From Candidatus Daviesbacteria bacterium (lineage in GTDB: Bacteria > Patescibacteriota > Microgenomatia > Daviesbacterales > UBA10151): 61,531 nucleotides of DNA. Where the stretch lies: contig JACQIX010000019.1 of assembly GCA_016198275.1 (NCBI GenBank), positions 1-61,531 on the forward strand, given 5' to 3'. Made by a program: the position numbers and the translations under genes. The notes below the pieces were generated by a model. It worked only from the letters and a program-made list of their open reading frames with translations, was not told the origin of the DNA and ran no database searches. Positions 2,668 through 43,226 of this stretch are shown here, one piece after another. Within the stretch, counting starts at the first letter, position 1, and each line of letters begins with the position of its first letter.

Positions 2668-2694
2668 ACTACAACTATGTAAACTAGTTGTAGT
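2668..2694 (-). other. Intercistronic stem-loop between the histidine kinase and receiver genes
   Basis: Perfect 10-bp inverted repeat ACTACAACTA (2668-2677) / TAGTTGTAGT (2685-2694) with a 7-nt loop. It touches the kinase stop codon. No U-tract follows on the transcribed strand. Confidence 0.3.
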
Positions 2695-23352: not shown

Positions 23353-23404
23353 CCGGCAAACACTTCCTCTAAACTGTACGTTCTTTAGTGGTAACTGAAT
23401 TCTA

Positions 23405-23442
23405 TTGAATTTGTTTTGATGATATTCTACACTATGTAGTAG
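23405..23442 (+). promoter_or_regulatory. Promoter plus palindromic operator upstream of the BlaI-like repressor gene
   Basis: -35 TTGAAT (23405-23410), a 17-nt spacer and -10 TACACT (23428-23433). The 16-mer CTACACTATGTAGTAG (23427-23442) contains the dyad CTACA-cta-TGTAG. It matches the 16-mer at 24901-24916 at 14 of 16 positions. Confidence 0.5.
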
Positions 23443-23444: not shown

Positions 23445-23810
23445 ATGAAGGCAAAAGCTTTGAGTGAACTTGAGCAGGAAGTAATGAATATTGTTTGGAA
23501 ATGCGGAGATTGCACTGTGCGTGACGTGCTTGAAAGAATAAATATGAAGAAAAAACTTGCGTATACGACCGTAATGACTATTATGGGGAGGCTTGTCGAT
23601 AAAGGAGTTTTGGCTAGAAAACCAGATGGCTTGAGTTACCTTTACTACCCAAGGATAAGCAAGAAAAATTTTGTAGCCAAGTCTGTTCACAATATTTTTA
23701 CTACTGCAGTAACTTCTCTGGGTCAGGAAGCAATCACTCATTTCGTAAAAGAAATTCAAAAGTTGAGTCCTAAAAAGAGGCGAGAACTTTTAAAAATACT
23801 GGATGAGTAA
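23445..23810 (+). CDS. BlaI/MecI/CopY-family winged-helix transcriptional repressor
   Basis: 121 aa. LSELEQEVMNIVWKCGDCTVRDVLERI...LAYTTVMTIMGRLVDKGVLAR is the family signature. It lacks the C-terminal CxCx4CxC of CopY and has an N-terminal CGDC instead. Confidence 0.85.
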   Translation: MKAKALSELEQEVMNIVWKCGDCTVRDVLERINMKKKLAYTTVMTIMGRLVDKGVLARKPDGLSYLYYPRISKKNFVAKSVHNIFTTAVTSLGQEAITHFVKEIQKLSPKKRRELLKILDE

Positions 23811-23816: not shown

Positions 23817-24845
23817 ATGTCAAACAAAACAGGTATCAATCAAAGCTACATCATCCTAGTACTTTTAGGGTTGGTAGCTGGGGCAATTAGTATTGCTTTA
23901 CTGGCTAAGGTATATCCGTTATTTTCGGCAAAAGCACTTTACTTTTGCCAACAGTTTGTCGCAAATACTTTTTTTATGCTCCCTCACACTCTTCCTGGAG
24001 CTTTTGCCACTGCGGTGTGGGCTGTTTTATCGCTGGGTCTTATTTCCTTTCTCATCCAGTTGGCAAAAACATACGCGCTTCTTCGAAAGACTATTCCGAA
24101 GAAGATTCCCTTAACTCGTAAGCTTCAAGAGACAGTCAACTCGTTAGGTCTTGGAAACAGTACTCAATTAATTGAAGACAAAAATTTATACTCCTTTTGT
24201 ATCGGTTTTTTGAACCCCAAAATTATCATTACTTCAGGTCTTATTTCAGATTTAACACAGAAGGAGCTTGAAGCAGTGTTGCTTCACGAACAGATGCACT
24301 TAAAAAATAGGGACCCGCTGAAAATATTGATTGGGAAAACTGTATCTTCAACGTTTTTCTTTCTGCCAATATTCAGGGAACTTTATCGAAATATGGAAGC
24401 TACCAATGAACTGATAGCCGATTATTGGACCACTGAAATTCAAAAGGATACAAAATTTTTACGCAGTGCTCTGCGCAAAATTATTGCCCAGCCCCAAATT
24501 ACATTCGCAACGGTTCCCGCCATTTCCCATCCTGATCATATCGAAATCAGGGTGCGTCAACTCAAAAACACTGGAATTAAACATAAACTAACCCTTTCGT
24601 ATAGCAGTATTATCGGCAGCGCAATGTTTATCGTGGTTAGTTTGTTTGTGCTTCAAACCCCTGTTGACGCATTCCACACTGAAGACTCAAGTGAACCGTC
24701 TTATTTTGTATGTTCGGTTGATAATGTCTGTAGGCAAGAGTGTCATCACAATTCCAATATGTCTGTTCCCCGTCCTGATCATTTATTCACTCCCGTTAAT
24801 TCTTCTCCTACTTCTTCAAAATACGAAGCTCCATCATACAAATAA
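23817..24845 (+). CDS. BlaR1/MecR1-like M56 membrane zinc protease lacking a penicillin-binding sensor and ending in a short Cys/His-rich tail
   Basis: 342 aa. It has TM helices and HExxH in LLHEQMHLKNRDP. After a final TM helix, the ~60-aa tail contains CSVDNVCRQECHH. Confidence 0.8.
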   Translation: MSNKTGINQSYIILVLLGLVAGAISIALLAKVYPLFSAKALYFCQQFVANTFFMLPHTLPGAFATAVWAVLSLGLISFLIQLAKTYALLRKTIPKKIPLTRKLQETVNSLGLGNSTQLIEDKNLYSFCIGFLNPKIIITSGLISDLTQKELEAVLLHEQMHLKNRDPLKILIGKTVSSTFFFLPIFRELYRNMEATNELIADYWTTEIQKDTKFLRSALRKIIAQPQITFATVPAISHPDHIEIRVRQLKNTGIKHKLTLSYSSIIGSAMFIVVSLFVLQTPVDAFHTEDSSEPSYFVCSVDNVCRQECHHNSNMSVPRPDHLFTPVNSSPTSSKYEAPSYK

Positions 24846-24877: not shown

Positions 24878-24916
24878 TTGACAGAGAAGTGATCACCCTA
24901 CTACACTTAGTAGTAG
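24878..24916 (+). promoter_or_regulatory. Promoter plus palindromic operator of the thiol/CxxC operon
   Basis: -35 TTGACA (24878-24883), an 18-nt spacer and -10 TACACT (24902-24907). The 7-5-7 palindrome CTACTAC-ACTTA-GTAGTAG (24898-24916) overlaps the -10. The leader carries GGAGGTGA before the ATG at 24951. Confidence 0.5.
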
Positions 24917-30774: not shown

Positions 30775-30813
30775 AAATTCTTAATGAAATCCTCATGAAT
30801 AATCGGTTAAAAT
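30775..30813 (+). promoter_or_regulatory. Promoter A with tandem 11-bp response-regulator boxes (multicopper oxidase operon)
   Basis: AAATTCTTAAT and GAAATCCTCAT (30775-30796), an 11-nt gap, -10 TAAAAT (30808-30813), then 8 nt to the GTG at 30822. Confidence 0.5.
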
Positions 30814-30821
30814 GAAAATCT

Positions 30822-32408
30822 GTGAATAAAACGTACTTAATAATATTGCTTGTAGTTGTAGTTCTCAGTGGAGTTTTTCTTTTTTCAAGACAACAATCAA
30901 ACACACCTCAAAAAGGAGAATTCTCTACTGCAGTTAATCAGGCAAGTAGCCCGAAACAACAAGAAACTGTGAATCTTAAAGATGGTGATACATATAACTT
31001 AACCGCCAGTGTAGTTAAAAAATCCATCAATGGCCAAGAGATGAAAATGCTTGCCTACAACGGCTCAATCCCTGGTCCCCTCATCAAAGTTCCTCAAGGA
31101 GCACAAATCACTCTCAAGTTTACAAACAATGCTGATGTTGACTCAACCATCCATTCGCATGGAGTCAGAGTCGATAACAAATTTGACGGGGTTCCTGATA
31201 TAACTCAGGATCCGGTAAAGCCGGGCCAATCATTCACCTATACTCTTAAATTCCCTGATGCCGGTGTGTATTGGTATCACCCACATATTCGAGAAGATTA
31301 TGCTCAAGAATTGGGATTATACGGAAATTTTTTGGTCACACCGAGCACTCCTGATTATTGGGCTGAGGTCGATCGCGAAGAAGCACTTTTTTTGGATGAC
31401 ATCCTTATTGAAAATGGGCAAATCGCCAAATTTGACAAGTCAGTTGTGGATCACACACTTATGGGGCGGTTTGGCAACACAATGTTGGTTAACGGAGATG
31501 ATAAATATAAGTTATCGGTCAAGCAAGGAGAGAGAGTGCGATTTTATGTTACAAACGCTGCTAATACAAGAACATTTAATTTTGCTATTCCTAATACTCG
31601 TATGAAGCTGGTTGGCAGTGACAACGGAAAATATGAGCAAGAGGAATGGATTGGTTCGGTTACCATTGGTCCATCAGAGCGGCAGATCATAGAAATTTGG
31701 TTTGACAAAAATGGACAGTATCAGATTGTCAACCAAACTTCTGATAAAACATACACTTTAGGAACTATTGCAGTACAGCAAAATCCCGTTACTACCTCAT
31801 ATTTTTTAGTCCCGCGTGTAAATCAGGATTACATTGATTCTCTTGCCAGCTTGCGGCCACAATTTGATAAACCGGTAGATAAAAGCCTAAAGCTTACATT
31901 ACAAATGGGACCATCAAATACTAGTACAAATAACAACAGCTCAATGGGTGGGCACATGATGGGTAATGATCAAATGATGGAAAATACTCAAATGACTATG
32001 GGAGATATCCAAAAAATAGAATGGGAAGACGATATGGGGATGATGAATGCCCAGTCAACCAAAGATTCACTTAAGTGGAAGCTGGTTGATATAGCAACCA
32101 ATAAAGAGAATATGGACATCGGCTGGCAGTTCAAAAAAGGTGATGTCGTTAAGATGAAGATTTTCAACGACGATAAATCCATGCATCCCATGCAACACCC
32201 GATCCATATTCATGGGCAAAGGTTTTTAGTGCTTTCGACCAATGGTGTTAAAAACAATAACCTTGTCTGGAAAGATACTACTCTCATTCAAACCGGAGAT
32301 ACAGTAGAACTCCTGGTACAAATGGATAATCCAGGAGACTGGGTAATTCACTGCCACATTCCGGAGCACATGGAAGCCGGAATGATGAGCGAATTCAAGG
32401 TAATTTAA
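30822..32408 (+). CDS. Multicopper oxidase (CueO/CopA-like) with a Met-rich insert
   Basis: 528 aa with a signal/TM anchor. The copper ligand motifs are HSHG, WYHPH, HPIHIHG and HCHIPEHMEAGMM. The Met-rich segment is MGGHMMGNDQMMENTQMTMG...DMGMM. Confidence 0.9.
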   Translation: MNKTYLIILLVVVVLSGVFLFSRQQSNTPQKGEFSTAVNQASSPKQQETVNLKDGDTYNLTASVVKKSINGQEMKMLAYNGSIPGPLIKVPQGAQITLKFTNNADVDSTIHSHGVRVDNKFDGVPDITQDPVKPGQSFTYTLKFPDAGVYWYHPHIREDYAQELGLYGNFLVTPSTPDYWAEVDREEALFLDDILIENGQIAKFDKSVVDHTLMGRFGNTMLVNGDDKYKLSVKQGERVRFYVTNAANTRTFNFAIPNTRMKLVGSDNGKYEQEEWIGSVTIGPSERQIIEIWFDKNGQYQIVNQTSDKTYTLGTIAVQQNPVTTSYFLVPRVNQDYIDSLASLRPQFDKPVDKSLKLTLQMGPSNTSTNNNSSMGGHMMGNDQMMENTQMTMGDIQKIEWEDDMGMMNAQSTKDSLKWKLVDIATNKENMDIGWQFKKGDVVKMKIFNDDKSMHPMQHPIHIHGQRFLVLSTNGVKNNNLVWKDTTLIQTGDTVELLVQMDNPGDWVIHCHIPEHMEAGMMSEFKVI

Positions 32409-32411
32409 TGA

Positions 32412-33377
32412 ATGAAAAAGCATGCCAAAACATTACTTCTTTTATGTGTTATAGGGATAATTGTTGTGGCTGTCTTCTTGCAATGCACAAAACCCAATAA
32501 CAATAGTACTTCTCCAAACACAGCTCCAACAAATATTCAGGGGGAAAATAATAGTTCATCCTTCATCGAGAGTTTACGCAGTAGAGACTATGAACCGAGC
32601 CAAATCACTATTGAAAGTACTCTTTCTAATAATGGAGCCTATACGGGCTATCTGATTTCCTATATTTCAGACGGTCTGAAAATTTACGGCAGGATGAATG
32701 TGCCAACTAGAAATGGACTATTCCCTGTCATTATTCTCAACCATGGATACTTTAATCAATCATCTTTCACCAGTGGTGATGGTACGCAGACCATGGCTGA
32801 TATTTTAGCTAGAAATGGCTATCTGACTCTGGCTTCGGACTATCGAGGGTTTGGTAAATCAGAAATTGATACCCAAGGATCACGCGGGCATAATCCTAAT
32901 TATGCTATTGATATTTTAAATCTAATTGCTTCTGTTACTAGCTTGGATAAGGCGGACCTAAATAGAATCGGTATGTGGGGGCATAGTATGGGTGGTGAAG
33001 TGGCCATCCGAACAGCTGAGGCAACAGACAAAATAAAAGCAGTTGTTTTGTGGGCACCAACAAGTACGAAAGCATCGGAAAACGCTGCGTTTTATGGAAG
33101 AGGCAGACGTACTTCACCTTTACCCAGTCAAGGTACTGAAAGCGCTTACTCGAATAATGACATCGGCTATATAACTGCTCCCATAAGTCTGCATCAAGGG
33201 CTGTCTGATACTGAAGTCGATCCAGAGTGGTCAAAAGATTTGGATGAAGCCTTACAAAAGGAAGGTAAATCTGTTGAGTATTTCGAATACCCAGGTCAAG
33301 ATCATAACTTCAGGAATCTTGGCTGGGAGGTTATATCAAAAAGAACTATTGAATTTTTCGATAAGTATTTGAAATAA
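32412..33377 (+). CDS. Secreted/anchored alpha/beta hydrolase (S9 / dienelactone-hydrolase-like)
   Basis: 321 aa. It has a nucleophile elbow GMWGHSMGG and C-terminal D...H (GLSDTEV, GQDHNF). Confidence 0.7.
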   Translation: MKKHAKTLLLLCVIGIIVVAVFLQCTKPNNNSTSPNTAPTNIQGENNSSSFIESLRSRDYEPSQITIESTLSNNGAYTGYLISYISDGLKIYGRMNVPTRNGLFPVIILNHGYFNQSSFTSGDGTQTMADILARNGYLTLASDYRGFGKSEIDTQGSRGHNPNYAIDILNLIASVTSLDKADLNRIGMWGHSMGGEVAIRTAEATDKIKAVVLWAPTSTKASENAAFYGRGRRTSPLPSQGTESAYSNNDIGYITAPISLHQGLSDTEVDPEWSKDLDEALQKEGKSVEYFEYPGQDHNFRNLGWEVISKRTIEFFDKYLK

Positions 33378-33401
33378 ACAAAGAAAAGAGGTGATGAAAT
33401 T

Positions 33402-33524
33402 ATGGAGGAAAAGAAACAAAAATACACATGTCCTATGCACCCCGAAGTAAAGTCTGACAAGCCGGGAAGTTGTCCAAAGTGTGGAATGGATTTAGTGCTA
33501 GAAGAAAATAAAGATGAGAAATAG
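33402..33524 (+). CDS. Unlisted 40-aa stand-alone heavy-metal-binding zinc-ribbon (HMBD-type) mini-protein
   Basis: It reads MEEKKQKYTCPMHPEVKSDKPGSCPKCGMDLVLEENKDEK and has an SD (AGAGGTGA) 7 nt upstream. The same YTCPMHPEV...KPGSCPKCGM motif forms the N-terminus of the P1B ATPase at 40980. Confidence 0.6.
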   Translation: MEEKKQKYTCPMHPEVKSDKPGSCPKCGMDLVLEENKDEK

Positions 33525-33535
33525 GTGTACAAAAT

Positions 33536-33573
33536 AAAATCTTAATAAAATCCTCATCTTTTTAAGTTATAAT
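33536..33573 (+). promoter_or_regulatory. Promoter B with tandem 11-bp boxes (autoregulated two-component operon)
   Basis: AAAATCTTAAT and AAAATCCTCAT (33536-33557), a 10-nt gap, -10 TATAAT (33568-33573), then 6 nt to the ATG at 33580. Confidence 0.55.
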
Positions 33574-33579
33574 ACGGGT

Positions 33580-34254
33580 ATGAGAATATTGCTGATTGAG
33601 GATGAACGTCGTCTTTCTAGTGTCGTTAAAAAGGGACTTACGGAGGAAGGGTTTGCCGTAGACACGGCCTTTGATGGTGAGGAAGGTCAATATCTGGCTG
33701 AATCTGAGAACTACGACCTCATAATCCTTGACATCATGCTTCCCAAGGTTGACGGACTGACTGTTTGTAAAGAACTTCGCGCCAAAAACATTAAAACCCC
33801 AATTCTTATGCTTACAGCTAAAACGACGGTTGAAGACAAGGCAGCGGGTTTAGATAGCGGTGCTGACGATTATCTGGCTAAACCATTTGCTTTTCTGGAG
33901 CTGAGATCACGCATTCACGCTCTTATTAGAAGAAGCAAACAAGATCCCTCTCCAACTCTCACCATTGCCGATTTAGTGCTCGACCCGATTAGACATAAAG
34001 TCACTCGTGATGGAAAAGACATTAGTCTTACTCCAAAAGAATTTTCGGTGCTGGAAATCCTGCTTCGTCATAAAGATGAGGTTGTCACGAGAACCATGAT
34101 TATCGAGCATGTTTGGGATTATAACTTTGATAGTATGAGCAATGTTGTTGATGTGTTTATTGCCCAACTCCGGCGAAAAGTTGACAAGGGAGCGAAGATT
34201 CAACTCATTCATACTCTGCATGGAGTGGGATATAGGGTAAGTAAGGGAATATGA
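33580..34254 (+). CDS. OmpR/PhoB-family response regulator (CopR/CusR-like)
   Basis: 224 aa. The receiver has DLIILDIMLPKVDG, and the winged-helix output has LTPKEFSVLEILL...VDVFIAQLRRKV...IHTLHGVGYRV. Confidence 0.9.
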   Translation: MRILLIEDERRLSSVVKKGLTEEGFAVDTAFDGEEGQYLAESENYDLIILDIMLPKVDGLTVCKELRAKNIKTPILMLTAKTTVEDKAAGLDSGADDYLAKPFAFLELRSRIHALIRRSKQDPSPTLTIADLVLDPIRHKVTRDGKDISLTPKEFSVLEILLRHKDEVVTRTMIIEHVWDYNFDSMSNVVDVFIAQLRRKVDKGAKIQLIHTLHGVGYRVSKGI

Positions 34255-35648
34255 AGACTAAAAGCATTCGCTTCCGCCTGACGTTCTGGTACACGATTTC
34301 TCTGGTTCTGGCAATCATTGTCATTTTTGCCAGCTTTTATTTTATAACCAGACAGGTACTCCATGACCAAACTGACAGCTCACTTAAAGTTCACAGTAAT
34401 AAGATTGTAGAGATTATCACAAGTCAGAACACTGGTATGCACGATGCGATTGCCAGGGAAGCTTTTGTGGAAGAATTTAGTAATATTCCGGGAATGCTGG
34501 TTGTGGTTATGAACAGTTCTGGGATGATCGTTTCAAGTTCTCAAACCGTTAGCCCAACAGATAGCGTAATCCGCGACCTCTTTGCAGAAGCCAACCAATC
34601 CCAGAAGCCTTTTTTTACTGATCGGCGCATTGGCACCTCGGAGCTCCGTTTCCTAGTCAATCCAATTGCGCAAAATAATTCACTGCTGGGAGTGGTTATC
34701 ATGGGACACCCAATTGATGTTATCAAGAATGCTCTCAATAGTTTGATTACCATGCTAGGGGTAGTCTTTGCCATCTTTCTTGTTCCGGCTGTTCTGGGCG
34801 GATATTTCAATGCACGCGCTGCGGTTTCACCCATCTCAGATATTTCTAAAAAATTAAAGCTTATTAACTCCGGAAATCTGAGTGAGCGTATTCGTAATCC
34901 AAATACGGGGGATGAGATTGAGGAATTGTCTGTAACTTTCAACAGCCTGCTTGACAGGCTTGGAGGTGCATTTCAAAGAGAACGACAGTTTATAGGGGAC
35001 GTTGCCCATGAAGTTAAAACCCCTCTCTCAGCCCAGCGAACGAATATCGAAGTTGCACTGGCAAGGGATCGGTCAAAGGAAGACTATCAGCAAGCTTTGG
35101 AGGAGTCGCTGGTTGATAATAATAGGCTTTCAACTACACTTAAAAATGTTCTAGATTTAGCATGGTCAGAGGCAGATGCAGCCCGTACTCAGTTTGAAAA
35201 CTTTGACCTTTCTGAACTGGTGCAAGAAATGATGGATTTAGGTACAAAAATGGCGGTCAAGAAGCAGATTTCGGTTGACGGAAGTATTGAACAACATCTT
35301 CTTATTTCGGGCAAAAAAGACAAACTTGAACGGGCACTTATTAATTTAGTTGATAATGCCATCAAATATACTCCAGACAAAGGGACGGTTACTATTTCCT
35401 TACAGAAAAAGAGGGACCAAGCCCAATTTAAGGTTAAAGATACAGGAAGGGGTATTTCCGTGAGGGACTTGCCGCATGTTTTTGAACGTTTCTACCGTGG
35501 TTCAAGGACTGATAAAACATTTGGTTCGGGATTAGGTTTGTCTATAACCTCCGCAATTGTAAGTGCTCATCGCGGGGAGATACGAGCGAAAAGTCAGATT
35601 GGTAAAGGCAGTGAGTTCATCGTTTTATTACCCCTCTCATCCTCATAA
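34251..35648 (+). CDS. Sensor histidine kinase (CopS/CusS-like)
   Basis: 465 aa. It has two TM helices flanking an extracytoplasmic domain, HAMP, H-box AHEVKTPLS, N-box LVDNAIKYTP, G1 DTGRGI and G2 GSGLGLSI. It has an ATGA overlap with the regulator gene. Confidence 0.9.
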   Translation: MKTKSIRFRLTFWYTISLVLAIIVIFASFYFITRQVLHDQTDSSLKVHSNKIVEIITSQNTGMHDAIAREAFVEEFSNIPGMLVVVMNSSGMIVSSSQTVSPTDSVIRDLFAEANQSQKPFFTDRRIGTSELRFLVNPIAQNNSLLGVVIMGHPIDVIKNALNSLITMLGVVFAIFLVPAVLGGYFNARAAVSPISDISKKLKLINSGNLSERIRNPNTGDEIEELSVTFNSLLDRLGGAFQRERQFIGDVAHEVKTPLSAQRTNIEVALARDRSKEDYQQALEESLVDNNRLSTTLKNVLDLAWSEADAARTQFENFDLSELVQEMMDLGTKMAVKKQISVDGSIEQHLLISGKKDKLERALINLVDNAIKYTPDKGTVTISLQKKRDQAQFKVKDTGRGISVRDLPHVFERFYRGSRTDKTFGSGLGLSITSAIVSAHRGEIRAKSQIGKGSEFIVLLPLSSS

Positions 35649-35674
35649 TTTCCTAATCCTTCAAAGTCTACCAT
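35636..35674 (+). promoter_or_regulatory. Promoter C with tandem 11-bp boxes (second CcdA + redoxin pair)
   Basis: CTCATCCTCAT and AATTTCCTAAT (35636-35657, overlapping the kinase stop), an 11-nt gap, -10 TACCAT (35669-35674), then 6 nt to the ATG at 35681. Confidence 0.45.
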
Positions 35675-35680
35675 AAGAGA

Positions 35681-36565
35681 ATGGACTTACTTGTCAGTGC
35701 GTCGTTAATCGCTGCATTCTTAGCCGGAATAGCAGCTTTATTTGCGCCTTGCTGTATTACGGTTTTACTCCCAACATATTTTGCCTCAATCTTTAAAGAA
35801 AAGAGCAAGGTATTTTTCATGACTTTTATATACTTTTTAGGACTACTTGCGGTTTTTATTCCCATCGGTTTGGGATTTACTGCTCTCACTCAACTCTTTC
35901 GGGAATTTCATAATGTCATATTTATCGGCGGAGGGATTTTTCTCTTAATATTAGGTTTTGCTTTGACTATTGGGTACAAATTTTCCCTGCCCATGCTTGT
36001 TCACCCGGAACTGAAAGAGCATGATATTCTCTCAGTCTTTGGATTGGGAATTTTTTCAGCAATTGCTACTACTTGCTGCGCTCCGGTGCTTGCAGGTGTC
36101 CTGGCGTTATCCAGCCTTTCAGGGTCCTATTTTCTGGGAGCTATTTACACACTTACTTATGTATTGGGCATGGTGACACCTCTATTTATACTGGCAGCCT
36201 TTTTGGATAAGGCAAATTTCACGAAAAAGTTTATGGGTTTCAGAAGGCCGGTAACTTTTGCAATATTAAACTTCAAGATTACCAATACAATCGCCAATCT
36301 CTTTTCCGGACTCATGTTTTTAGCCATTGGAGTAGTTATCACTTATTTAGGTCTGACTAATCAGTTGTCCATGCAAAATTCGTATCAGCTGAATACCAAT
36401 CTCATAATTTTCGATATAACAAAGCGAATCGGTCAGTACAGTGCAGTTTTACCTGAGTCGGTTTGGGCAATCATTTTCTTAAGCATCTTTGGACTGATTG
36501 TGGCAGTTGCAGTCAAACAATTCATTACTCAAAGTCGAAAGCAGGAAGGAGGTGGATCTTTATGA
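35681..36565 (+). CDS. CcdA/DsbD-like transmembrane thiol:disulfide transporter (second copy, longer)
   Basis: 294 aa. It has LFAPCCITVLLPTYF and a second Cys pair in ATTCCAPVLAGV. Confidence 0.7.
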   Translation: MDLLVSASLIAAFLAGIAALFAPCCITVLLPTYFASIFKEKSKVFFMTFIYFLGLLAVFIPIGLGFTALTQLFREFHNVIFIGGGIFLLILGFALTIGYKFSLPMLVHPELKEHDILSVFGLGIFSAIATTCCAPVLAGVLALSSLSGSYFLGAIYTLTYVLGMVTPLFILAAFLDKANFTKKFMGFRRPVTFAILNFKITNTIANLFSGLMFLAIGVVITYLGLTNQLSMQNSYQLNTNLIIFDITKRIGQYSAVLPESVWAIIFLSIFGLIVAVAVKQFITQSRKQEGGGSL

Positions 36566-37212
36566 ACTCATCACAGAAACACATAGCTATTATTGCGACA
36601 GAAGTAATTATCGCCATGGTTATTCTCGTCTCGATTTTTGTGAAGGCTACAAGCCAATCACCTGCAACCCAATCATCTCAAGCGAATACATCAGGTGATT
36701 CAATGGCAGATCACCACAAACCAAAGCCCGCAGATTCAGCAGTTTTTGACGGACTCATGGGCAAATCAGCTCCGGATTTTACCTTACCCAGCTATGATGG
36801 CAAACAAGTAAGTCTAAAGGATTTTCGGGGCAAAAACGTAATTCTCTTTTTCAATGAAGGCTTGATGTGCTATCCAGCTTGTTGGAATCAAATTGTCGCC
36901 TTTGGGAAAGATACTGCCTTTAAGGATAAAAATACAGTTGTAATTAATATTACAGTGGATTCCAAAGATGACTGGAAAAAAGCAATTGATAAAATGCCGG
37001 AACTGGCGGGAAACACGGTTCTTTTAGATCCAAACAGAGAAGTTTCAGGTCTGTATGGGGTTTTGGCGCTCAATTCTTCTATGCATCGGGGACAATTTCC
37101 GGGGCATACCTATGTTCTGATTGGCAAAGATGGCATTGTCCGATTTGAAAAAGATGATGCTCAAATGGCAGTCCGAAACCAAGAGTTATTATCTGAAGTA
37201 GCCAAGCTCTAA
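36562..37212 (+). CDS. Membrane-anchored thioredoxin-fold redoxin (AhpC/TSA / TlpA-ResA-like)
   Basis: 216 aa from the ATG at 36562, with an ATGA overlap and GGAGGTG 7 nt upstream. It has GKSAPDFTLPSYDGKQVSLKDFRGKNVILFF and a CYPAC redox motif. Confidence 0.7.
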   Translation: MNSSQKHIAIIATEVIIAMVILVSIFVKATSQSPATQSSQANTSGDSMADHHKPKPADSAVFDGLMGKSAPDFTLPSYDGKQVSLKDFRGKNVILFFNEGLMCYPACWNQIVAFGKDTAFKDKNTVVINITVDSKDDWKKAIDKMPELAGNTVLLDPNREVSGLYGVLALNSSMHRGQFPGHTYVLIGKDGIVRFEKDDAQMAVRNQELLSEVAKL

Positions 37213-37214
37213 GT

Positions 37215-37253
37215 ACTATACTCATGAAATCCTAACACCCCATTTTCTATACT
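37215..37253 (+). promoter_or_regulatory. Promoter D with 11-bp boxes (DUF2933-like gene)
   Basis: ACTATACTCAT and GAAATCCTAAC (37215-37236), an 11-nt gap, -10 TATACT (37248-37253), then 6 nt to the ATG at 37260. Confidence 0.45.
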
Positions 37254-37259
37254 GGGGTC

Positions 37260-37499
37260 ATGAGGCAGGTGAACAACATGAACACTATAAGTACAGTTAA
37301 ACCCGTCCATGAACATGCAGAAAACAATAGCTTTTTGTCGGGAAAGACTTTGAGTATTTGTCTTGGGCTCATTGCTTTGGCGGTCGTTGCGCTCACTGTG
37401 TTTAAAGTCTCGGTCGGGACTCTGTTCTTTGCCGGAGTTTTACTGTTGTGCCCGCTTTTACATGTCTGGATGATGAAGGATGGTGGGCATAAACATTAA
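37260..37499 (+). CDS. Small membrane protein, DUF2933-like (C-terminal CPLLHVWMM...GGHKH)
   Basis: 79 aa with one or two TM segments. The C-terminus LLLCPLLHVWMMKDGGHKH resembles the Cys/His/Met tail of DUF2933 proteins seen in metal-resistance loci (from memory). Confidence 0.45.
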   Translation: MRQVNNMNTISTVKPVHEHAENNSFLSGKTLSICLGLIALAVVALTVFKVSVGTLFFAGVLLLCPLLHVWMMKDGGHKH

Positions 37500-37510
37500 G
37501 AAACTCTCAT

Positions 37511-37549
37511 CTCTCGCTCACCCTGTCCTAATTGGTGATCCGCTACACT
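37511..37549 (+). promoter_or_regulatory. Promoter G with 11-bp boxes (His-rich secreted protein)
   Basis: CTCTCGCTCAC and CCTGTCCTAAT (37511-37532), an 11-nt gap and -10 TACACT (37544-37549). A 38-nt leader with AAGGAGGTGA precedes the ATG at 37588. Confidence 0.4.
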
Positions 37550-37587
37550 TGATATAAGTTAATAACCATCAAGGAGGTGAAAGGAAA

Positions 37588-37896
37588 ATGACTAAACAAA
37601 ATATCTTTAAAACATTCGGACTTCTTACTTTATCAGCGTTTGCAGTTGGAATTCTTTTCCTTTCAGTCAGAGCCAATCAGGTTGAAGCAAAAGATTTTGT
37701 AAATAGTCGTTATCAAATGATGGGGTATATGAATAATTCAGACTATTCATACCCTAATCACACCAAATTAACTTCTGAAGAGAAGCAGAAAATGATCGAC
37801 TTGATGAAAAAACACCATGGCGACAACTGGCAAAATCATCATCAACAAATGCATGGTTCCGATAACGGAATCCAAGAGAAAGGAGGAAGCTTATGA
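37588..37896 (+). CDS. Small secreted/anchored His-rich protein
   Basis: 102 aa. It has a signal-anchor (LLTLSAFAVGILFLSV) and a C-terminal HHGDNWQNHHQQMHGSDNG. Confidence 0.5.
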   Translation: MTKQNIFKTFGLLTLSAFAVGILFLSVRANQVEAKDFVNSRYQMMGYMNNSDYSYPNHTKLTSEEKQKMIDLMKKHHGDNWQNHHQQMHGSDNGIQEKGGSL

Positions 37897-37940
37897 GCTG
37901 CTGCATGAGCCCATGTCGAAGCCCTACGATTAAGAAGTAA
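37893..37940 (+). CDS. Unlisted 15-aa Cys/Met-rich micro-ORF (MSCCMSPCRSPTIKK), translationally coupled
   Basis: The ATG at 37893 overlaps the upstream TGA (ATGA). AGGAGG lies at 37881-37886, 6 nt upstream. The TAA stop is at 37938-37940, and an intrinsic terminator follows. Confidence 0.35.
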   Translation: MSCCMSPCRSPTIKK

Positions 37941-37964
37941 GGACACGAATAGTAAAACCAGAAA

Positions 37965-37999
37965 ATCACCCCTCAATATCCCCGGGGGGTGATTTTTTT
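37965..37999 (+). terminator. Rho-independent terminator
   Basis: Stem ATCACCCC (37965-37972) / GGGGTGAT (37986-37993), with extra C:G pairs in the loop region, followed by a run of T to 37999. Confidence 0.7.
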
Positions 38000-38033
38000 A
38001 CTCACAATTTCCTAATCCTAAGATTGTTACACT
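37995..38033 (+). promoter_or_regulatory. Promoter E with 11-bp boxes (ICMT-like operon)
   Basis: TTTTTACTCAC and AATTTCCTAAT (37995-38016), an 11-nt gap, -10 TACACT (38028-38033), then 8 nt to the ATG at 38042. Confidence 0.45.
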
Positions 38034-38041
38034 ACAAGCAT

Positions 38042-38761
38042 ATGGAATACGATTACGGAAATTGGCTACTCGTTTTATTTAATATTGTTCTGTTTTTGTA
38101 CTTTATCAAAAGTGCGTTTAAGCCACGGACAAAGACAGACTGGACAACTTTCCGCTATTTTGGCGCCTTCATTGTGGCACTATTCGCCGAGATGTATGGA
38201 TTTCCTCTGACTATTTATCTTTTAACTTCATTCTTTGGTAACAAACTAGGATTGGATTTTACTCACAACAATGGCCACATTCTCAATACCTTGTTTGGTT
38301 TAAAAGGTGATCCACATTTTAATATCCTGCACATCGCTAGCTACGCGCTGATTATTGGCGGACTTGTCCTTCTGGGTAGGGCTTGGGAAGTGCTCTATAA
38401 AGCGGTTAAACAAAACAAACTTGCAACAGACAGTGTTTACAAATACATCCGCCATCCTCAATATCTGGCGTTTATACTTATTATTTTAGGATTCCTTGTT
38501 CAATGGCCGACTCTAATTACTCTTATCATGGCCCCAATTCTTATCTTCCGGTATATTAAGCTTGCAAGAACAGAGGAAAAAGAGATGCTTAAAAAATTTG
38601 GGTCTGCATACCAAGTGTATAAAAATGAGGTCCCGGGTTTCTTTCCGTCTATAAAACATCTTTTAGGCGATGTTATTCAAAAAATTACAATCTCAAAAGA
38701 TCTTAAGGCAGGAGAACATTATGAAAAACAGAGTCACATTGTACCGCACAGTCAAAACTGA
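38042..38761 (+). CDS. Isoprenylcysteine carboxyl methyltransferase (ICMT/PEMT)-family membrane protein
   Basis: 239 aa from the ATG at 38042. The track TTG start at 38024 lies inside the predicted promoter. The family signature YKYIRHPQYLAFILIILGFLV is present. Confidence 0.6.
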   Translation: MEYDYGNWLLVLFNIVLFLYFIKSAFKPRTKTDWTTFRYFGAFIVALFAEMYGFPLTIYLLTSFFGNKLGLDFTHNNGHILNTLFGLKGDPHFNILHIASYALIIGGLVLLGRAWEVLYKAVKQNKLATDSVYKYIRHPQYLAFILIILGFLVQWPTLITLIMAPILIFRYIKLARTEEKEMLKKFGSAYQVYKNEVPGFFPSIKHLLGDVIQKITISKDLKAGEHYEKQSHIVPHSQN

Positions 38762-39284
38762 TGATCAAGAGGAGGCAAATTCAGATCCCCGTGATTCAAT
38801 TACCGAGCCGATTCGGGAAAGCGTTGTTTTGTTTGTTATAAAAATTGCAACAATTCTTATCATCACCGATCTGGTTTATGCTGTGGTTAATTTTGTTCTG
38901 TTGCGAGCCTTCTTTTTAAACCACGAATTGCCATTTAATATCCACGACCTGACTGCGTATATTCTGACCCTTCTGCATATAGCAAAAACAGCGCTCCAAG
39001 TTTGGGGAATCTCATCAATCGTATTTCGTTGGGTGGGAAACTCATACTTCATCACGCAAAAACATCTGGTACGACACGAGGGAATCATTAACTGTATTGA
39101 AAAGATATATGACCTGGATATTATTCGTTCAATATCAATCCAACAATCATGGTTGGGAAAAATTTTCAGGTACGGTTCAGTAAATATAGAGATAAGCGCT
39201 TCTGGTGGGTATACCGATCAAGTTACCTTAAACGGAGTAACAAATCCTCAGCAATACGAAAAGATGCTGCGCCGACACTTCTGA
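38721..39284 (+). CDS. Membrane protein with a bacterial PH (YdbS/YdbT-like, bPH_2) domain
   Basis: 187 aa from the ATG at 38721, with AGGAG 6 nt upstream. Two TM helices are followed by VRHEGIINCIEKIYDLDIIRSISIQQSWLGKIFRYGSVNIE. Confidence 0.5.
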   Translation: MKNRVTLYRTVKTDDQEEANSDPRDSITEPIRESVVLFVIKIATILIITDLVYAVVNFVLLRAFFLNHELPFNIHDLTAYILTLLHIAKTALQVWGISSIVFRWVGNSYFITQKHLVRHEGIINCIEKIYDLDIIRSISIQQSWLGKIFRYGSVNIEISASGGYTDQVTLNGVTNPQQYEKMLRRHF

Positions 39285-39379
39285 ACTACATAAAATTCTT
39301 CCCCCTCAATGGTAATTTCTGTTACTATAAAATGTAGTAGGGAAAATTATCAAAACATAAGCTTAAGGAGGTGATACTA

Positions 39380-39721
39380 ATGGCAAAACCAAATAACAAT
39401 AATTCAATAATTATGTGGGTAGTCGGTGCACTTATTGTTGGCGGAGTCTTGGGCTACCTGATTTCCCAATCAAGAACCCCATCAGCTGCGTATATGAGCG
39501 GAACTGCTTCCATGATGAAAGACAGTGGTTCTACAATGATGCAAATGGGCAAAATGATGATGCAAAGTGGCTCCATGATGCAACAGAAAGGTCAAAAATA
39601 TGGTGACCAGGAAATGATGCAACAGGGCAAGACCCTTGAAGAAAACGGCACCATGATGGAACAAAAAGGAACCACCTTGACGGAACGAGGCAACGGTATG
39701 ATGCAAATGATGGGTCAATAA
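39380..39721 (+). CDS. Membrane-anchored Met-rich protein (candidate Cu(I) binder)
   Basis: 113 aa from the ATG at 39380, with AAGGAGGTGA 6 nt upstream. A TM anchor is followed by repeated MMxxG/MMQ motifs (SMMKDSGSTMMQMGKMMMQSGSMMQQKG...GNGMMQMMGQ). Confidence 0.6.
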   Translation: MAKPNNNNSIIMWVVGALIVGGVLGYLISQSRTPSAAYMSGTASMMKDSGSTMMQMGKMMMQSGSMMQQKGQKYGDQEMMQQGKTLEENGTMMEQKGTTLTERGNGMMQMMGQ

Positions 39722-39725
39722 GTAT

Positions 39726-40421
39726 ATGGATTTTACCTATGCCTATTTAATAGCCAGTATCTTACTGCTGTTTGTTTGGCTTGTTTTGTATTGGCTAAAA
39801 CCACAGTCACGCAAGAAAATGCTTCTTATTAGTCTTCTTACTATGCCGCTTGGGTTGACTGAGCCGCTTTTTGTTCCTTCATATTGGTTTCCTTTTACTC
39901 TTTTTGATCTGGCCCGACAAACAAGATTTGACTTGGAAAGCCTTCTTTTTTCATTTGCCGTCGGAGGAATTACTGCCATTCTATACGAATCACTCTGGGG
40001 CAAATTGAGAAAACCCATAGGTGTTCACGAAATGCACCAAGGCAAACATCGACTTCATCGTTTAGCCTTGCTATCACCACTAATATCGTTCGGAGCTTTG
40101 TACTTCTTCACCCCCCTTAATCCTATTTACACGACTATTCTTGCCATGACCATTGGCGCAATTGCCACTTGGCTGTGCCGTCCCGATCTTGCTCGCGCCA
40201 TGCTTACAGGAAGTCTTTTATTTCTAATTCTTTATTTCGTAGTTTTTCTTATTGGATTTGTGTGGCTTTTCCCAGGATATGTTGAGGCTGTTTGGAACTT
40301 ACCTGCCATATCCGGTGTTTTACTTGCCGGAGTTCCTATCGAAGAACTACTGTTTGCAGCCTCTTTAGGCGCTATGTGGAGTAGCGTTTATGAACATTTT
40401 ACTTGGTACAAGTTCTCGTAA
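39726..40421 (+). CDS. Polytopic membrane protein (weak lycopene-cyclase-domain-like PxEE motif)
   Basis: 231 aa with about 6 TM helices. GVPIEELLFAASLG resembles the hPxEE motif of lycopene cyclase domain proteins. The call is tentative. Confidence 0.35.
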   Translation: MDFTYAYLIASILLLFVWLVLYWLKPQSRKKMLLISLLTMPLGLTEPLFVPSYWFPFTLFDLARQTRFDLESLLFSFAVGGITAILYESLWGKLRKPIGVHEMHQGKHRLHRLALLSPLISFGALYFFTPLNPIYTTILAMTIGAIATWLCRPDLARAMLTGSLLFLILYFVVFLIGFVWLFPGYVEAVWNLPAISGVLLAGVPIEELLFAASLGAMWSSVYEHFTWYKFS

Positions 40422-40423
40422 AT

Positions 40424-40461
40424 GAAATCCTAATAAAATCCTAATGAAGATTGAGTATCAT
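40424..40461 (+). promoter_or_regulatory. Promoter F with the best tandem 11-bp boxes (P-type ATPase operon)
   Basis: GAAATCCTAAT and AAAATCCTAAT (40424-40445), a 10-nt gap, -10 TATCAT (40456-40461), then 6 nt to the ATG at 40468. Confidence 0.55.
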
Positions 40462-40467: not shown

Positions 40468-40983
40468 ATGCAGGAACCAAAAATCAGAACAATCTTACTT
40501 GTAAGTATTTTTGCGATCGCTTTTGCGTTTGTTGAGGCTTCAGTGGTTGTGTATCTACGACATCTATTGGGTGCCAGTTTTAACCCGCCGCAAGTCAGCC
40601 GGGAGCAAGTCTTATTATTAGTCCCAGGAATAGCTTTTCTTGACCCAAAAACAACTCTGGCCGTAATGAAGGATTCACAGATTTTGAAGGTTGAGCAATT
40701 TCGGGAGGCAGCGACCATAATTATGCTTGCCAGTGTTGCATTTTTAGCTGCCAAGGAAGCTCGCGAGAAATTAGCTTACTTTCTTCTCGCGTTTGGTGTT
40801 TGGGATATCTTTTATTACGTCTTTTTGCGGCTGGTTATTGGTTGGCCGAAGTCTCTTTTTGATTCAGATATTTTTTTTCTGTTACCAGTTCCATGGGTAG
40901 GACCGGTGATTACACCTTTAATTATCTCAAGCGTTTTAATCTTTGCAGCTTTATTGCTTTTAAAAAGAAAAGTTGAATTATGA
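40468..40983 (+). CDS. Polytopic membrane protein of unknown function, first gene of the ATPase operon
   Basis: 171 aa from the ATG at 40468. The track start at 40444 lies inside the predicted operator. It has about 5 TM helices and an ATGA overlap with the ATPase gene. Confidence 0.4.
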   Translation: MQEPKIRTILLVSIFAIAFAFVEASVVVYLRHLLGASFNPPQVSREQVLLLVPGIAFLDPKTTLAVMKDSQILKVEQFREAATIIMLASVAFLAAKEAREKLAYFLLAFGVWDIFYYVFLRLVIGWPKSLFDSDIFFLLPVPWVGPVITPLIISSVLIFAALLLLKRKVEL

Positions 40984-43226
40984 AAAATCAAGTCGCTGAA
41001 AAGAGTGTTTATACCTGTCCGATGCATCCAGAAGTGCAGATGGACAAGCCTGGCTCATGCCCAAAATGCGGGATGAAACTAGTGGAAAGCAAAATGAAGA
41101 TGAACCATGAGGGAATGGATCATGGTGCCATGGGTCACGGTGATCATGTAATGAAACCAGTGTCTCAAATGTCATGGTGGGAAAAATTCAAAATGAGCAT
41201 GACCATGGCTATGGGTATGGAGCATGGAGGCCTGGCAGGACGTGAGATGGCCAAACTTATGGAAGAGGATATTCGCAATAAGTTTTTTGTGGCGTTGATT
41301 CTGACCTTGCCGATTATCGCGTATTCACCTCTAGGAACAAACATCTTGGGGTTAAGACTCCCTGAGCCGATTCCTGCCAGCTGGACAATGTTTTTGTTGG
41401 CTACTCCTGTTTATTTTTACTCCGGCTGGATATTTCTCTACTCCACATACAAAGCATTAAAAGCAAAAACGCTTAACATGGCTGTGCTCATTGCTGTTGG
41501 TATCACCGCAGCATATGCATTTAGTGTGGTTCTAACGCTTCTCGGTAGCAAAGAATCTTTTTATGAAGCCGCTGCAATGCTAACCACATTCGTTCTCTTT
41601 GGTCATTGGATGGAGATGAAAAGTAGGCGTGGGACTACTGATGCGCTTCAAGCACTTTTTGACCTTGTCCCCCCTCAAGCGCGAGTAATACGAAATGGCA
41701 AAGAAGAGTTGATTCCTACAGCGCAAGTGCGATTGGGTGATGTTATTGTCTTAAAACCTGGAGATAAGGTGCCCGTTGACGGTGAAATAATAGAAGGTGA
41801 AACTGCCATTGATGAATCTTTAGTGACTGGTGAGTCTTTACCTGTTGTTAAAACAGTTGGTGATAAGGTGATCGGCGGCTCAATCAATACTTCGGGGTCA
41901 GTCCAATTTAAAGCAACTAAAATTGGTGAAGATACCGCTCTTGCTCAAATAGTCAAAATGGTTGAAACTGCCCAGAACTCCAAAGCTCCGGGGCAGAAAA
42001 TCGCTGATCGCTTTGCCAGATATTTAGTAGTTGTCGCTGTTGGCGGTGGACTTTTGACCTTCGCCGTCTGGTTTTTCATCCTCGGCCAGCCGATTCTCTT
42101 TGCACTTACTTTTGCCATCTCTACTGTCGTTATTGCCTGCCCTGATGCACTTGGACTGGCTACACCAACAGCTGTAGCAGTAGGTACTGGTTTGGGCGCA
42201 AAACATAATATTTTGATTAAAGATGCTCCTACTCTTGAGCAAGTTTCAAAAATACAATCTGTTGTTCTGGACAAAACAGGAACCCTCACTGAGGGTAAAC
42301 CTAAAATTACCGATGTGGTTGCTTCAAAAGGATTCACCGAGAACGATATTATTACACTTGATGCTGCAGCCGAAGCAAGATCTTCTCATCCTTTGAGTCT
42401 GGCGGTTTTAGAAGAAGCCAAACAAAGAAAACTTAGCATTCCTACTCAGGTGGAAAAATTTAAGAATCTAGCAGGTCATGGGGTTGAAGCAGTTGTTGAT
42501 GGTAAGCATGTGCTTGTCGGAACCGTAAAACTCATGAACGACTCGAGGGTTGATATTTCACCACTTCAAAAAGATATTGACAGACTACTCTCTGAAGGCA
42601 AAACCATCATGGTATTGGCTTTAGATAACAAAATTGCGGGCGTTGCAGCTGCTTCTGATCCGGTGAAGGAAAACGCTAAGCAAGCGATTACTCGTATGAA
42701 AGAGCTTGGGTTAGAGGTTGCGATGATTACCGGAGACAACAAAAAAACCGCTGAAGCCATTGGGAAACAGTTAAACATTGATAGAATCTTTTCCGAAGTA
42801 CTTCCGGGAGACAAAGCCTCCTACGTCAAGAAACTGCAACAGGAAGGCAAATTTACTGCCATGGTTGGTGATGGAGTCAATGATGCTCCGGCACTGGCTC
42901 AAGCTGATATCGGTATTGCCATTGGGGCCGGAACCGACGTAGCTATTGAAACAGCCAAAGTCGTACTGATGAAATCCGATCCTGCGGACGTTCTCAGAGC
43001 CATCAAGCTCTCTAAAGCGACTGTTCGTAAAATGAAACAGAATCTCTTCTGGGCTTCGATTTACAACCTATTGGCCATACCTGTTGCAGCCGGTGTTTTA
43101 TATCCCGCCTACAACATTTCATTACGTCCTGAAATCTCGGCACTTCTGATGAGCATTTCTTCCATTATTGTCGCAACTAATGCAGTCTTACTTAACCGAG
43201 CAGAAAAGGATCTTATAACCGTATGA
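40980..43226 (+). CDS. Copper-type P1B heavy-metal-translocating ATPase with an HMBD zinc-ribbon + His/Met-rich N-terminus and a non-canonical CPD transmembrane motif
   Basis: 748 aa. It has TGES (VTGESLPV), DKTGTLT, GDGVNDAP, TM7 YNLLAIP and TM8 MSISS. TM6 reads IACPDALGLATP (codons tgc cct gat). The N-terminus is YTCPMHPEVQMDKPGSCPKCGM followed by HEGMDHGAMGHGDHVM. There is no ferredoxin-like CxxC HMA domain. Confidence 0.92.
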   Translation: MKNQVAEKSVYTCPMHPEVQMDKPGSCPKCGMKLVESKMKMNHEGMDHGAMGHGDHVMKPVSQMSWWEKFKMSMTMAMGMEHGGLAGREMAKLMEEDIRNKFFVALILTLPIIAYSPLGTNILGLRLPEPIPASWTMFLLATPVYFYSGWIFLYSTYKALKAKTLNMAVLIAVGITAAYAFSVVLTLLGSKESFYEAAAMLTTFVLFGHWMEMKSRRGTTDALQALFDLVPPQARVIRNGKEELIPTAQVRLGDVIVLKPGDKVPVDGEIIEGETAIDESLVTGESLPVVKTVGDKVIGGSINTSGSVQFKATKIGEDTALAQIVKMVETAQNSKAPGQKIADRFARYLVVVAVGGGLLTFAVWFFILGQPILFALTFAISTVVIACPDALGLATPTAVAVGTGLGAKHNILIKDAPTLEQVSKIQSVVLDKTGTLTEGKPKITDVVASKGFTENDIITLDAAAEARSSHPLSLAVLEEAKQRKLSIPTQVEKFKNLAGHGVEAVVDGKHVLVGTVKLMNDSRVDISPLQKDIDRLLSEGKTIMVLALDNKIAGVAAASDPVKENAKQAITRMKELGLEVAMITGDNKKTAEAIGKQLNIDRIFSEVLPGDKASYVKKLQQEGKFTAMVGDGVNDAPALAQADIGIAIGAGTDVAIETAKVVLMKSDPADVLRAIKLSKATVRKMKQNLFWASIYNLLAIPVAAGVLYPAYNISLRPEISALLMSISSIIVATNAVLLNRAEKDLITV

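Follow-up and report, generated by a model that had tools for sequence, protein, structure and literature searches.

Positions 1–61,531 of contig JACQIX010000019.1 of a Candidatus Daviesbacteria bacterium (a stretch analyzed over its whole length and referred to here as the window) carry a gene cluster with a response regulator, a sensor kinase and several copper-typical proteins. An earlier note on this DNA had described pairs of tandem 11-mers upstream of seven transcription units of this cluster and had predicted that they constitute one regulon of the OmpR-type regulator encoded among them. The locus raises the question of which protein reads these boxes, and with what effect. The prediction of a single regulon is supported by the specificity of the boxes within the window, by their conservation in orthologous loci and by a co-variation between one residue of the regulator and one base of the boxes. 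The boxes are accordingly described here as the predicted binding sites of the cluster-encoded, CusR/CopR-like regulator, a well-supported assignment. On the whole we consider it quite probable that the cluster represents a CusRS/CopRS-like metal-stress regulon in Microgenomates, in which the regulator would activate seven pho-box-like promoters.

All seven dimers (22 bp, two 11-mers each) are located on the forward strand and start at positions 30775, 33536, 35636, 37215, 37511, 37995 and 40424. Direct reading of the sequence reproduced every one of the reported pairs together with the TAnnnT hexamer and the start codon that follow it: a spacer of 10–11 nt separates dimer and hexamer in 7/7 sites, and the start codon of a plausible gene lies downstream of each hexamer. 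Position 8 (T) and position 10 (A) of the half-site, which the note had called invariant, are indeed identical in all 14 half-sites. The information is concentrated in positions 5–11 (T-C-C/T-T-A/C-A-T), while positions 1–4 are A/T-rich; for consensus sequences we use the alphabet codes Y, M, W and n. The spacers and flanks of the dimer sites are mutually unrelated. With 11-bp tandem units, 10–11 nt to the −10 hexamer and no −35 consensus, the promoters have the PhoB/OmpR-type architecture that had been ascribed to them.

Gene families were assigned with Pfam and NCBIfam, and these assignments agree with the gene calls made before. Box pair 1 (30775–30796, AAATTCTTAAT GAAATCCTCAT) is followed by an 11-nt spacer, the hexamer TAAAAT (30808–30813) and a GTG codon at 30822. 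The transcription unit behind it (30822–33524) encodes a multicopper oxidase (30822–32408), an alpha/beta hydrolase (32412–33377) and a 40-residue HMBD protein (33402–33524). Box pair 2 (33536–33557, AAAATCTTAAT AAAATCCTCAT) has a 10-nt spacer, the hexamer TATAAT (33568–33573) and an ATG at 33580; it would be the autoregulatory promoter of the operon of the regulator (33580–34254) and the kinase (34251–35648). Box pair 3 (35636–35657, CTCATCCTCAT AATTTCCTAAT) is overlapped by the final codons of the kinase gene. Its 11-nt spacer leads to TACCAT (35669–35674) and to an ATG at 35681, where the genes for a DsbD/CcdA-like membrane protein (35681–36565) and an AhpC/redoxin (36562–37212) begin. Box pair 4 (37215–37236, ACTATACTCAT GAAATCCTAAC), again with an 11-nt spacer, precedes TATACT (37248–37253) and the ATG (37260) of a small membrane protein with a weak match to DUF2933 (37260–37499).

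The fifth site is a triple box (37500–37532) composed of GAAACTCTCAT, CTCTCGCTCAC and CCTGTCCTAAT at 37500, 37511 and 37522, respectively. It is connected by an 11-nt spacer to TACACT (37544–37549) and serves the gene of a His-rich secreted protein (37588–37896, ATG at 37588), whose mRNA would have a leader of ~31 nt with an AGGAGG ribosome-binding site. Box pair 6 (37995–38016, TTTTTACTCAC AATTTCCTAAT) has an 11-nt spacer, the hexamer TACACT (38028–38033) and an ATG at 38042; it is located upstream of the genes for an ICMT-family methyltransferase (38042–38761) and a bPH_2 protein (38721–39284). A terminator (37977–37998) divides the His-rich unit from this promoter, and its T-tract is part of the distal box of the pair. 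Box pair 7 (40424–40445, GAAATCCTAAT AAAATCCTAAT) is followed by a 10-nt spacer, TATCAT (40456–40461) and an ATG at 40468. The operon behind it extends from 40468 to ~45363 and comprises a membrane protein (40468–40983), a copper-type P1B ATPase with HMBD (40980–43226), which passes the models TIGR01511 and TIGR01525, and small proteins including YHS and DUF5676.

The earlier note had also called for a scan of specificity. We scored the window with a position weight matrix (PWM) of the half-site, applied as a dimer with an 11-bp offset to both strands (~123,000 positions), and used 200 dinucleotide-preserving shuffles of the window as control. The seven sites turned out to be the seven highest dimer scores on both strands, and the matrix found no dimer of comparable score elsewhere in the 61.5 kb. 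Six dimers reached at least 18 bits (0.07 expected from the shuffles) and five reached at least 22 bits (0.005 expected), and a simple regular expression for the boxes gave eight matches compared with 0.77 expected. In a leave-one-out scoring the sites at 30775, 33536, 35636 and 37215 retained 22.6, 23.3, 22.9 and 19.9 bits, respectively, and the site at 40424 was the best of the window with 26.0 bits. That the pattern is a chance similarity, or consists of promoter copies left by duplication, might be suspected from the A/T-rich sequence and from the two of the seven sites that score weakly when left out. This excess over the shuffles, the unrelated spacers and flanks, and the conservation of the sites in orthologous loci of different lineages argue against both possibilities, and we consider them virtually negligible. 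The next-best matches in the window, 44135 and 29411 on the reverse strand, run antisense within coding regions and are taken for chance matches; the genes in which they lie account for their conservation in the related loci L001 and L003, so they were rejected as additional sites.

For the comparison between genomes, loci were fetched around regulator homologs (L001–L008 and L129–L132) or taken from pattern scans (L054 and L249). Regulator homologs with 75–95% identity belong to bacteria of the Microgenomates group of the candidate phyla radiation (CPR), e.g. Roizmanbacteria and Gottesmanbacteria, from samples including groundwater metagenomes. Boxes and −10 hexamers are kept in L001, L003, L004, L006–L008, L054, L129–L132 and L249, whose regulators are 72–95% identical to that of the window. 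The conserved boxes stand in front of the genes of the regulator, the DsbD-like protein, the small protein, the His-rich protein, the ICMT-like protein and the ATPase operon, while the DNA around them shows no conservation. When the promoters of six regulator genes are aligned (A2), conservation is confined to the boxes, the −10 hexamer and the ATG. The promoter of box pair 1 recurs in L003 (6299) and L131 (8101), there before different genes (a SHOCT protein; a DUF302 protein and a hydrolase). Box pair 3 is conserved in L003, L007, L129 and L131; box pair 4 has orthologous sites in L001 (13707) and L003 (13661); box pair 6 is found in L003 (14443), L004 (17220), L006 (17847), L008 (14029) and L131 (15150), and box pair 7 in L001 (15913), L003 (17815), L008 (15966) and L131 (17210). 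All three phased boxes of the triple site and its −10 hexamer are kept in the orthologous promoters of L003 and L007 (alignment A1). Pooling of 37 cross-genome sites yielded the half-site consensus (A)(A)(W)(W)TCYTMAT; because this set was chosen with the matrix, its invariance figures are biased upward, and the spacer of 9–12 nt in 37/37 retained sites corresponds to the range required by the scan.

Does the regulator itself leave a trace in these boxes? In the crystal structure of PhoB with DNA, Arg201 makes a base-specific hydrogen bond (PMC3973317). In the recognition helix of the window's regulator (NVVDVFIAQLRRK) this position is occupied by Gln196, as aligned by the conserved pattern V-[H/F]-[I/V]-x-x-[L/I]-R. 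Among the 120 closest homologs, residue 196 is Gln in 29, Ala in ~56 (50 of them with an Ala-Ala pair) and Ser in ~31. We neutralised position 7 of the half-site in the matrix and then read this position in the promoter-proximal boxes. In loci with Gln196 (the window, L003, L007, L129 and L130) the ratio of C to T is 16:2, compared with 3:10 in loci with Ala196 (L001, L004 and L131) and 1:15 in loci with Ser196 (L006, L008, L054 and L132); Fisher's test gives p = 4e-7, uncorrected for phylogeny. L131 is particularly instructive: its gene order is that of the window and its regulator, 88% identical, carries Ala196, and it has T in place of the window's C in the promoters of the regulator, DsbD, ICMT and ATPase genes. 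A change of several operators together with one residue of the helix is as expected if the regulator reads the boxes. The regulator and its full set of operators may have shifted together between genomes, with Gln going with TCCT and Ala or Ser with TCTT.

The start codons at 33580, 35681, 37260 and 40468 lie 6 nt behind the end of the hexamer, and those at 30822 and 38042 lie 8 nt behind it; a leader with AGGAGG is present only at 37588. As a Shine-Dalgarno sequence does not fit between a −10 hexamer and a start codon 6–8 nt behind it, the mRNAs from six of these promoters are probably leaderless or near-leaderless. Hexamers of the type TATAAT, TATACT or TAGAAT at 5–7 nt before an ATG, likewise with no Shine-Dalgarno sequence, also occur outside the cluster (7684, 12235 and 51918 on the forward strand; 55790, 51886, 2626, 16793 and 61144 on the reverse strand), so leaderless transcription looks common in this Microgenomates genome. 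We tried a generic sigma-70 consensus scan as a detector of the box promoters and discarded it: in the cluster it found 35 promoters with 37.4 expected, i.e. no enrichment, and it listed just two of the seven (30784 and 37224), each at the minimum of 9/12 and with a first hexamer (ATGAAA) inside the boxes. This poor performance fits promoters that have no −35 element. In our literature searches we found nothing on copper regulons or leaderless promoters of CPR bacteria.

Given that CPR promoters are poorly characterised and that the boxes occupy the −35 region, the repeats could also be a lineage-specific core-promoter element, either an unusual −35 or UP element or the −35 element of an alternative sigma factor; other promoters of the window also have no clear TTGACA. 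At least six other strong, leaderless-looking promoters of the window, however, carry no boxes (7684, 12235 and 51918 on the forward strand; 55790, 51886 and 2626 on the reverse strand). The boxes are not a general promoter feature. Moreover, they are confined to the cluster and co-vary with a residue of the recognition helix, a tandem or triple arrangement with an 11-bp phase is typically seen with winged-helix regulators and not with sigma elements, and no sigma-factor gene was noticed among the Pfam matches of the cluster. We regard a core-promoter element as very unlikely and retain the cluster-encoded regulator as the predicted reader of the boxes.

This regulator is a protein of 224 residues with a receiver domain (REC, PF00072, E = 1.1e-28) and a C-terminal winged-helix domain (Trans_reg_C, PF00486, E = 3.6e-26). 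Its phospho-acceptor Asp51, located in the motif DLIILDIMLP, aligns with that of E. coli CusR, and the combination of a receiver with Asp and a C-terminal winged helix places it in the OmpR/PhoB family. It is the only protein of the window that joins these two domains; the earlier statement that the island encodes one such regulator, with boxes in its own promoter, is borne out by this and by the dimer at 33536. The regulator shares 49% identity with E. coli CusR over its full length (E = 1e-74), and the best PDB match of its DNA-binding domain is the effector domain of PcoR (2JZY, E = 4e-23). The adjacent sensor histidine kinase (465 residues) comprises two transmembrane segments followed by HAMP, HisKA and HATPase_c domains. 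In L001 (10682–11686) and L006 (10682–11680) the kinase is considerably shorter (~332–334 residues) and only HAMP, HisKA and HATPase were called. These short kinases seem to lack the extracytoplasmic sensor domain, yet the boxes are kept in both loci.

A second two-component pair of the window, composed of a kinase (2694–4199) and a 134-residue protein (2222–2626), both on the reverse strand, was considered as a source of the box-binding protein. The smaller protein consists of a receiver without a DNA-binding domain, and the pair was therefore rejected. Its receiver gene also looks leaderless, with TAGAAT 6 nt before the ATG.

The cluster holds, as far as its operator sequences indicate, two interleaved circuits. 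An inverted repeat, TACTATAAAATGTAGTA, is located at 39323–39339 on the forward strand and overlaps a −10-like hexamer (TACTAT) upstream of the gene of a Met-rich protein (39380–39721). No tandem box was found upstream of this gene, which has the BlaI-type operator instead. The operator TACTACAnnnTGTAGTA matches three places in the window with at most one mismatch (23425–23441, 24899–24915 and 39323–39339), compared with 0.15 expected. The first two adjoin the gene of a Penicillinase_R (BlaI/CopY-like) repressor (23445–23810), which is followed by a gene for an M56 (BlaR1-like) peptidase (23817–24845). One operator lies upstream of an operon for thioredoxin-like, DUF3105 and DsbD_2 proteins and another before the Met-rich gene, and the operator is conserved in L001, L003, L004 and L006. 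The Met-rich gene is probably under the control of the BlaI/CopY-like repressor. What the earlier note called the ICMT-like operon has to be divided accordingly: the boxes upstream of 38042 were read correctly, and the operon probably ends at 39284, leaving 39380–40421, with the Met-rich gene and the gene of a lycopene-cyclase-domain protein (39726–40421), under a promoter of its own with a BlaI/CopY-type operator.

The presence of this repressor brings up the possibility that the tandem boxes are bound by a regulator other than the OmpR-type protein, namely by the BlaI/CopY-like repressor itself or by ArsR- or CsoR-type proteins of related loci, as regulators of these kinds accompany the cluster in several genomes. 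The repressor, however, has its own conserved inverted-repeat operator at three other places, and the cluster of the window lacks ArsR and CsoR homologs, whose presence elsewhere is variable. Direct repeats of 11 bp fit dimers of the OmpR/PhoB type, and the regulator's own promoter is always among the box sites. Binding by another regulator is, in our judgment, extremely unlikely.

Several observations weigh against the proposed regulon. Two sites do poorly in the leave-one-out scoring: the site at 37995 falls to 12.5 bits, which is borderline, and the dimer at 37511 falls to −1.4 bits and is, by score alone, inseparable from background. The latter is weak when taken alone but belongs to the conserved triple box. 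The best NCBIfam model of the regulator, TIGR01387 (cztR_silR_copR), gives 263.7 bits with a cut-off of 279.2, and that of the kinase, TIGR01386 (cztS_silS_copS), gives 259.2 bits over the full length with a cut-off of 292.55. As both scores are just under the curated cut-offs, the pair has to be described as nearest relatives of the heavy-metal subfamily and not as certified members. The sensor domain of the kinase (approximately residues 35–165) contains scattered His and Met residues and has no relative among solved structures; in a PDB search for a CusS-like sensor, the cytoplasmic part of the kinase alone was matched. The counts of the co-variation are phylogenetically non-independent, and L130, with Gln196, is a partial exception with T in two of three proximal boxes. 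For an mRNA with almost no leader, a start at GTG, as at 30822, would be uncommon. Finally, a metagenome-wide scan with the 21-nt pattern AAATCYTMATNAAATCCTMAT returned mostly unrelated DNA, so that beyond these genomes a dimer match has no diagnostic value by itself.

This metagenome scan returned 120 loci (L133–L252) with L249 as the sole orthologous cluster, and it was abandoned as a source of further sites. Out of ~145 matches, 11 (in nine loci) had a −10 hexamer at the right distance, which is about the chance level. The matches in loci other than L249 (e.g. L136, L173 and L227, or L139, L153 and L204) are unrelated to the regulon, and the scan is uninformative on specificity within a genome. 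Many of the contig names share the prefixes Ga0126339, Ga0126342 and Ga0126343, and many loci contain several matches, which in some contigs lie ~75–80 bp apart or adjacent at a distance of 11 bp.

Based on the architecture of the promoters and the domain composition of the two proteins we propose the following mechanism. The kinase (34251–35648) would sense a signal from outside the cytoplasm, which is most likely copper or silver, and phosphorylate Asp51 of the regulator (33580–34254). The phosphorylated regulator would then bind as a head-to-tail dimer to two tandem 11-bp units, each consisting of a 4-bp A/T stretch and TCYTMAT. With the transcription start taken at ~7 nt after the −10 hexamer, the boxes would cover approximately −44 to −23 and thereby take the place of the −35 element. 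Phosphorylation-dependent dimer binding and class II activation are proposed because the promoters have the geometry known from PhoB and its pho boxes; RNA polymerase would be recruited as it is by PhoB. Seven promoters would be switched on together, namely those of the oxidase/hydrolase/HMBD, regulator-kinase, DsbD-redoxin, small membrane protein, His-rich, ICMT-bPH and P1B-ATPase operons, and the regulator-kinase operon would be subject to positive autoregulation. Binding, activation rather than repression, the transcription starts and the copper signal are all inferred from sequence.

The assignment of copper (or silver) as the probable signal is derived from the family affinities of the pair and from the content of the regulon, which includes a multicopper oxidase, a copper-type P1B ATPase, HMBD and YHS proteins and His- and Met-rich proteins. 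The regulator could, however, bind the boxes in response to another signal (another metal, silver, or envelope thiol/redox stress), or its binding could repress. A sensor domain with neither a recognisable metal site nor a solved relative leaves room for such a signal, and the DsbD/redoxin, ICMT and bPH genes are not metal-specific; furthermore, a site over the −35 region could occlude the polymerase, and some −10 hexamers are at consensus (TATAAT in the regulator promoter). Against this stand the best family matches, which are copper/silver/heavy-metal subfamilies, CusR and PcoR, and a regulon with a multicopper oxidase, a copper-type P1B ATPase, HMBD and YHS. Further arguments against it are promoters with no −35 element and a geometry equal to that of PhoB-activated promoters. 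We consider a non-copper signal or repression rather unlikely and favor activation in response to copper or silver.

The regulator is 75–95% identical across different Microgenomates lineages. The flanking genes, and also the cluster's own gene complement, vary when positions 23400–45400 of the window are compared with L001, L003, L004, L006, L007 and L131. The GC content of the cluster (0.41) is slightly above that of its flanks (0.38 and 0.34). Taken together, the high identity of the regulator, the differing gene context and the GC content are suggestive of a lateral spread of the module.

Little has been learned so far about how CPR/Patescibacteria regulate transcription, and in this cluster a regulator and its operators form a small system open to experiment, with seven targets and many orthologous versions. 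Whether it is the first clearly defined regulator-operator system of the CPR (Microgenomates), in the sense of a self-contained and possibly horizontally spread module with a re-tooled CusR-like helix, seven mostly leaderless class II promoters, a concerted change of regulator and operators and an interleaved CopY/BlaI circuit, we regard as an evenly balanced question. If so, the orthologous loci would represent a natural series of specificity switches. The cluster also provides sequence evidence that in this lineage transcription from activator-dependent promoters begins at the start codon, and it would tie proteins of unknown function (DUF2933-like, His-rich, ICMT-like, bPH_2 and DUF5676) to metal stress. 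A system of the CusRS/CopRS type would be expected to work by this mechanism, and known biology is thereby extended to a new lineage and not changed. Most interesting in our view are the number of co-regulated leaderless promoters, the co-variation, the near-identity with an actinobacterial CopR box and the second circuit.

How does the system compare with those already known? Its closest proteins by sequence are those of CusRS and PcoRS, with which it shares the order of regulator and kinase genes and copper detoxification targets. The recognition helix is different, with K-R in CusR and R-R in PcoR compared with A-Q in the regulator of the window. The spacer between cusR and cusC of E. coli K-12 contains, as read from the genome, the palindrome AAAATGACAAttTTGTCATTTT, which we take to be the CusR box; Yamamoto and Ishihama are said to have described this box in 2005. 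A search of the window for the CusR-type palindrome AAAATGACAAnnTTGTCATTTT gave five loose matches compared with 5.09 expected and none in the cluster, in agreement with the earlier remark that the box differs from that of CusR. The helix with A-Q instead of K-R or R-R is in line with this lack of a counterpart of the E. coli palindrome. The second circuit resembles CopY/BlaI repressors with their TACAnnTGTA-like operators in that it pairs a Penicillinase_R repressor and an M56 peptidase with inverted repeats; it differs from the box regulon in using an inverted instead of a direct repeat and in acting on different promoters.

In the pho boxes of E. coli the proximal core is located ~10 bp from the −10 hexamer. 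A pho box consists of two 11-bp tandem units over 22 bp, each with a 7-bp core and a 4-bp A/T stretch, and PhoB contacts sigma and recruits the polymerase (PMC4447250). The sites of the window have the same tandem units, the same division into core and A/T stretch and the same span of 22 bp; they stand in place of the −35 element at ~10 nt from the −10 hexamer, and the regulator's own promoter carries such a site, all of which qualifies them as pho-box-like. They differ in the core, which is TCYTMAT compared with CTGTCAT of the pho box, and in the residue corresponding to Arg201 of PhoB, which is Gln, Ala or Ser in this regulator and its homologs. Furthermore, most target mRNAs look leaderless here, and the genes point to metal stress and not to phosphate.

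A known relative of the box is that of Corynebacterium glutamicum. CopRS of this organism responds to copper, switches on a multicopper oxidase and a P-type ATPase and is autoregulated, and its box is TGAAGATTTnnTGAAGATTT (PMC3140484); binding of CopR to the perfect direct repeat TGAAGATTTgaTGAAGATTT was demonstrated by electrophoretic mobility shift assays and mutagenesis (PMC3140484). Its reverse complement reads AAATCTTCA-tc-AAATCTTCA and has an 11-bp period. The half-site AAATCTTCA (= TGAAGATTT) is one mismatch away from the half-site AAATCCTCA of the window. The window consensus AAATCYTMA-nn-AAATCCTMA is identical to the C. glutamicum box at eight of nine positions per half-site and has the same 2-bp linker, and in two CPR loci of the Ser class (L008 at 15966 and L054 at 3985) the boxes are identical to it. 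Unlike the single genomic site of C. glutamicum (PMC3140484), there are seven promoters here. Other differences tell against our interpretation as well: the two regulators are ~37% identical, and in Corynebacterium-type loci the box has the opposite orientation relative to copR and lies further upstream, at −59 to −78 from the published start (~−120 from a provisional start at MLVVDDE) and 266–285 bp from the divergent transcription start. A box in the same orientation and position next to an orthologous regulator, as in C. glutamicum, was thus not found. With 37% identity, an opposite orientation and a distant box, the likeness could be convergent. We consider it a strong lead, not proof of a common descent of the regulator-box pair.

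We scanned 185,579 species genomes (one per species) for the exact C. glutamicum box. An OmpR-family regulator was encoded within 8 kb in 31 of the 120 returned loci (L009–L128); in about two thirds of these 31 the box lies either at most ~125 nt upstream of the regulator's start codon or at the 3' end of the gene for the regulator or the kinase. Loci with the exact box include Corynebacterium, Rothia, Desulfosporosinus, Clostridium and Sulfurimonas. The box TGAAGATTTnnTGAAGATTT stands directly upstream of or just after OmpR-family regulators in Desulfosporosinus, Clostridium, Lachnospiraceae and Sulfurimonas; in these examples from distant phyla no matches to a copper ATPase or oxidase were found within 8 kb. 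Several of the regulators have Asn at the position of PhoB-Arg201. The C. glutamicum-type box may serve a wider group of regulators, and the box of the window is different from that of CusR yet not a new type of box.

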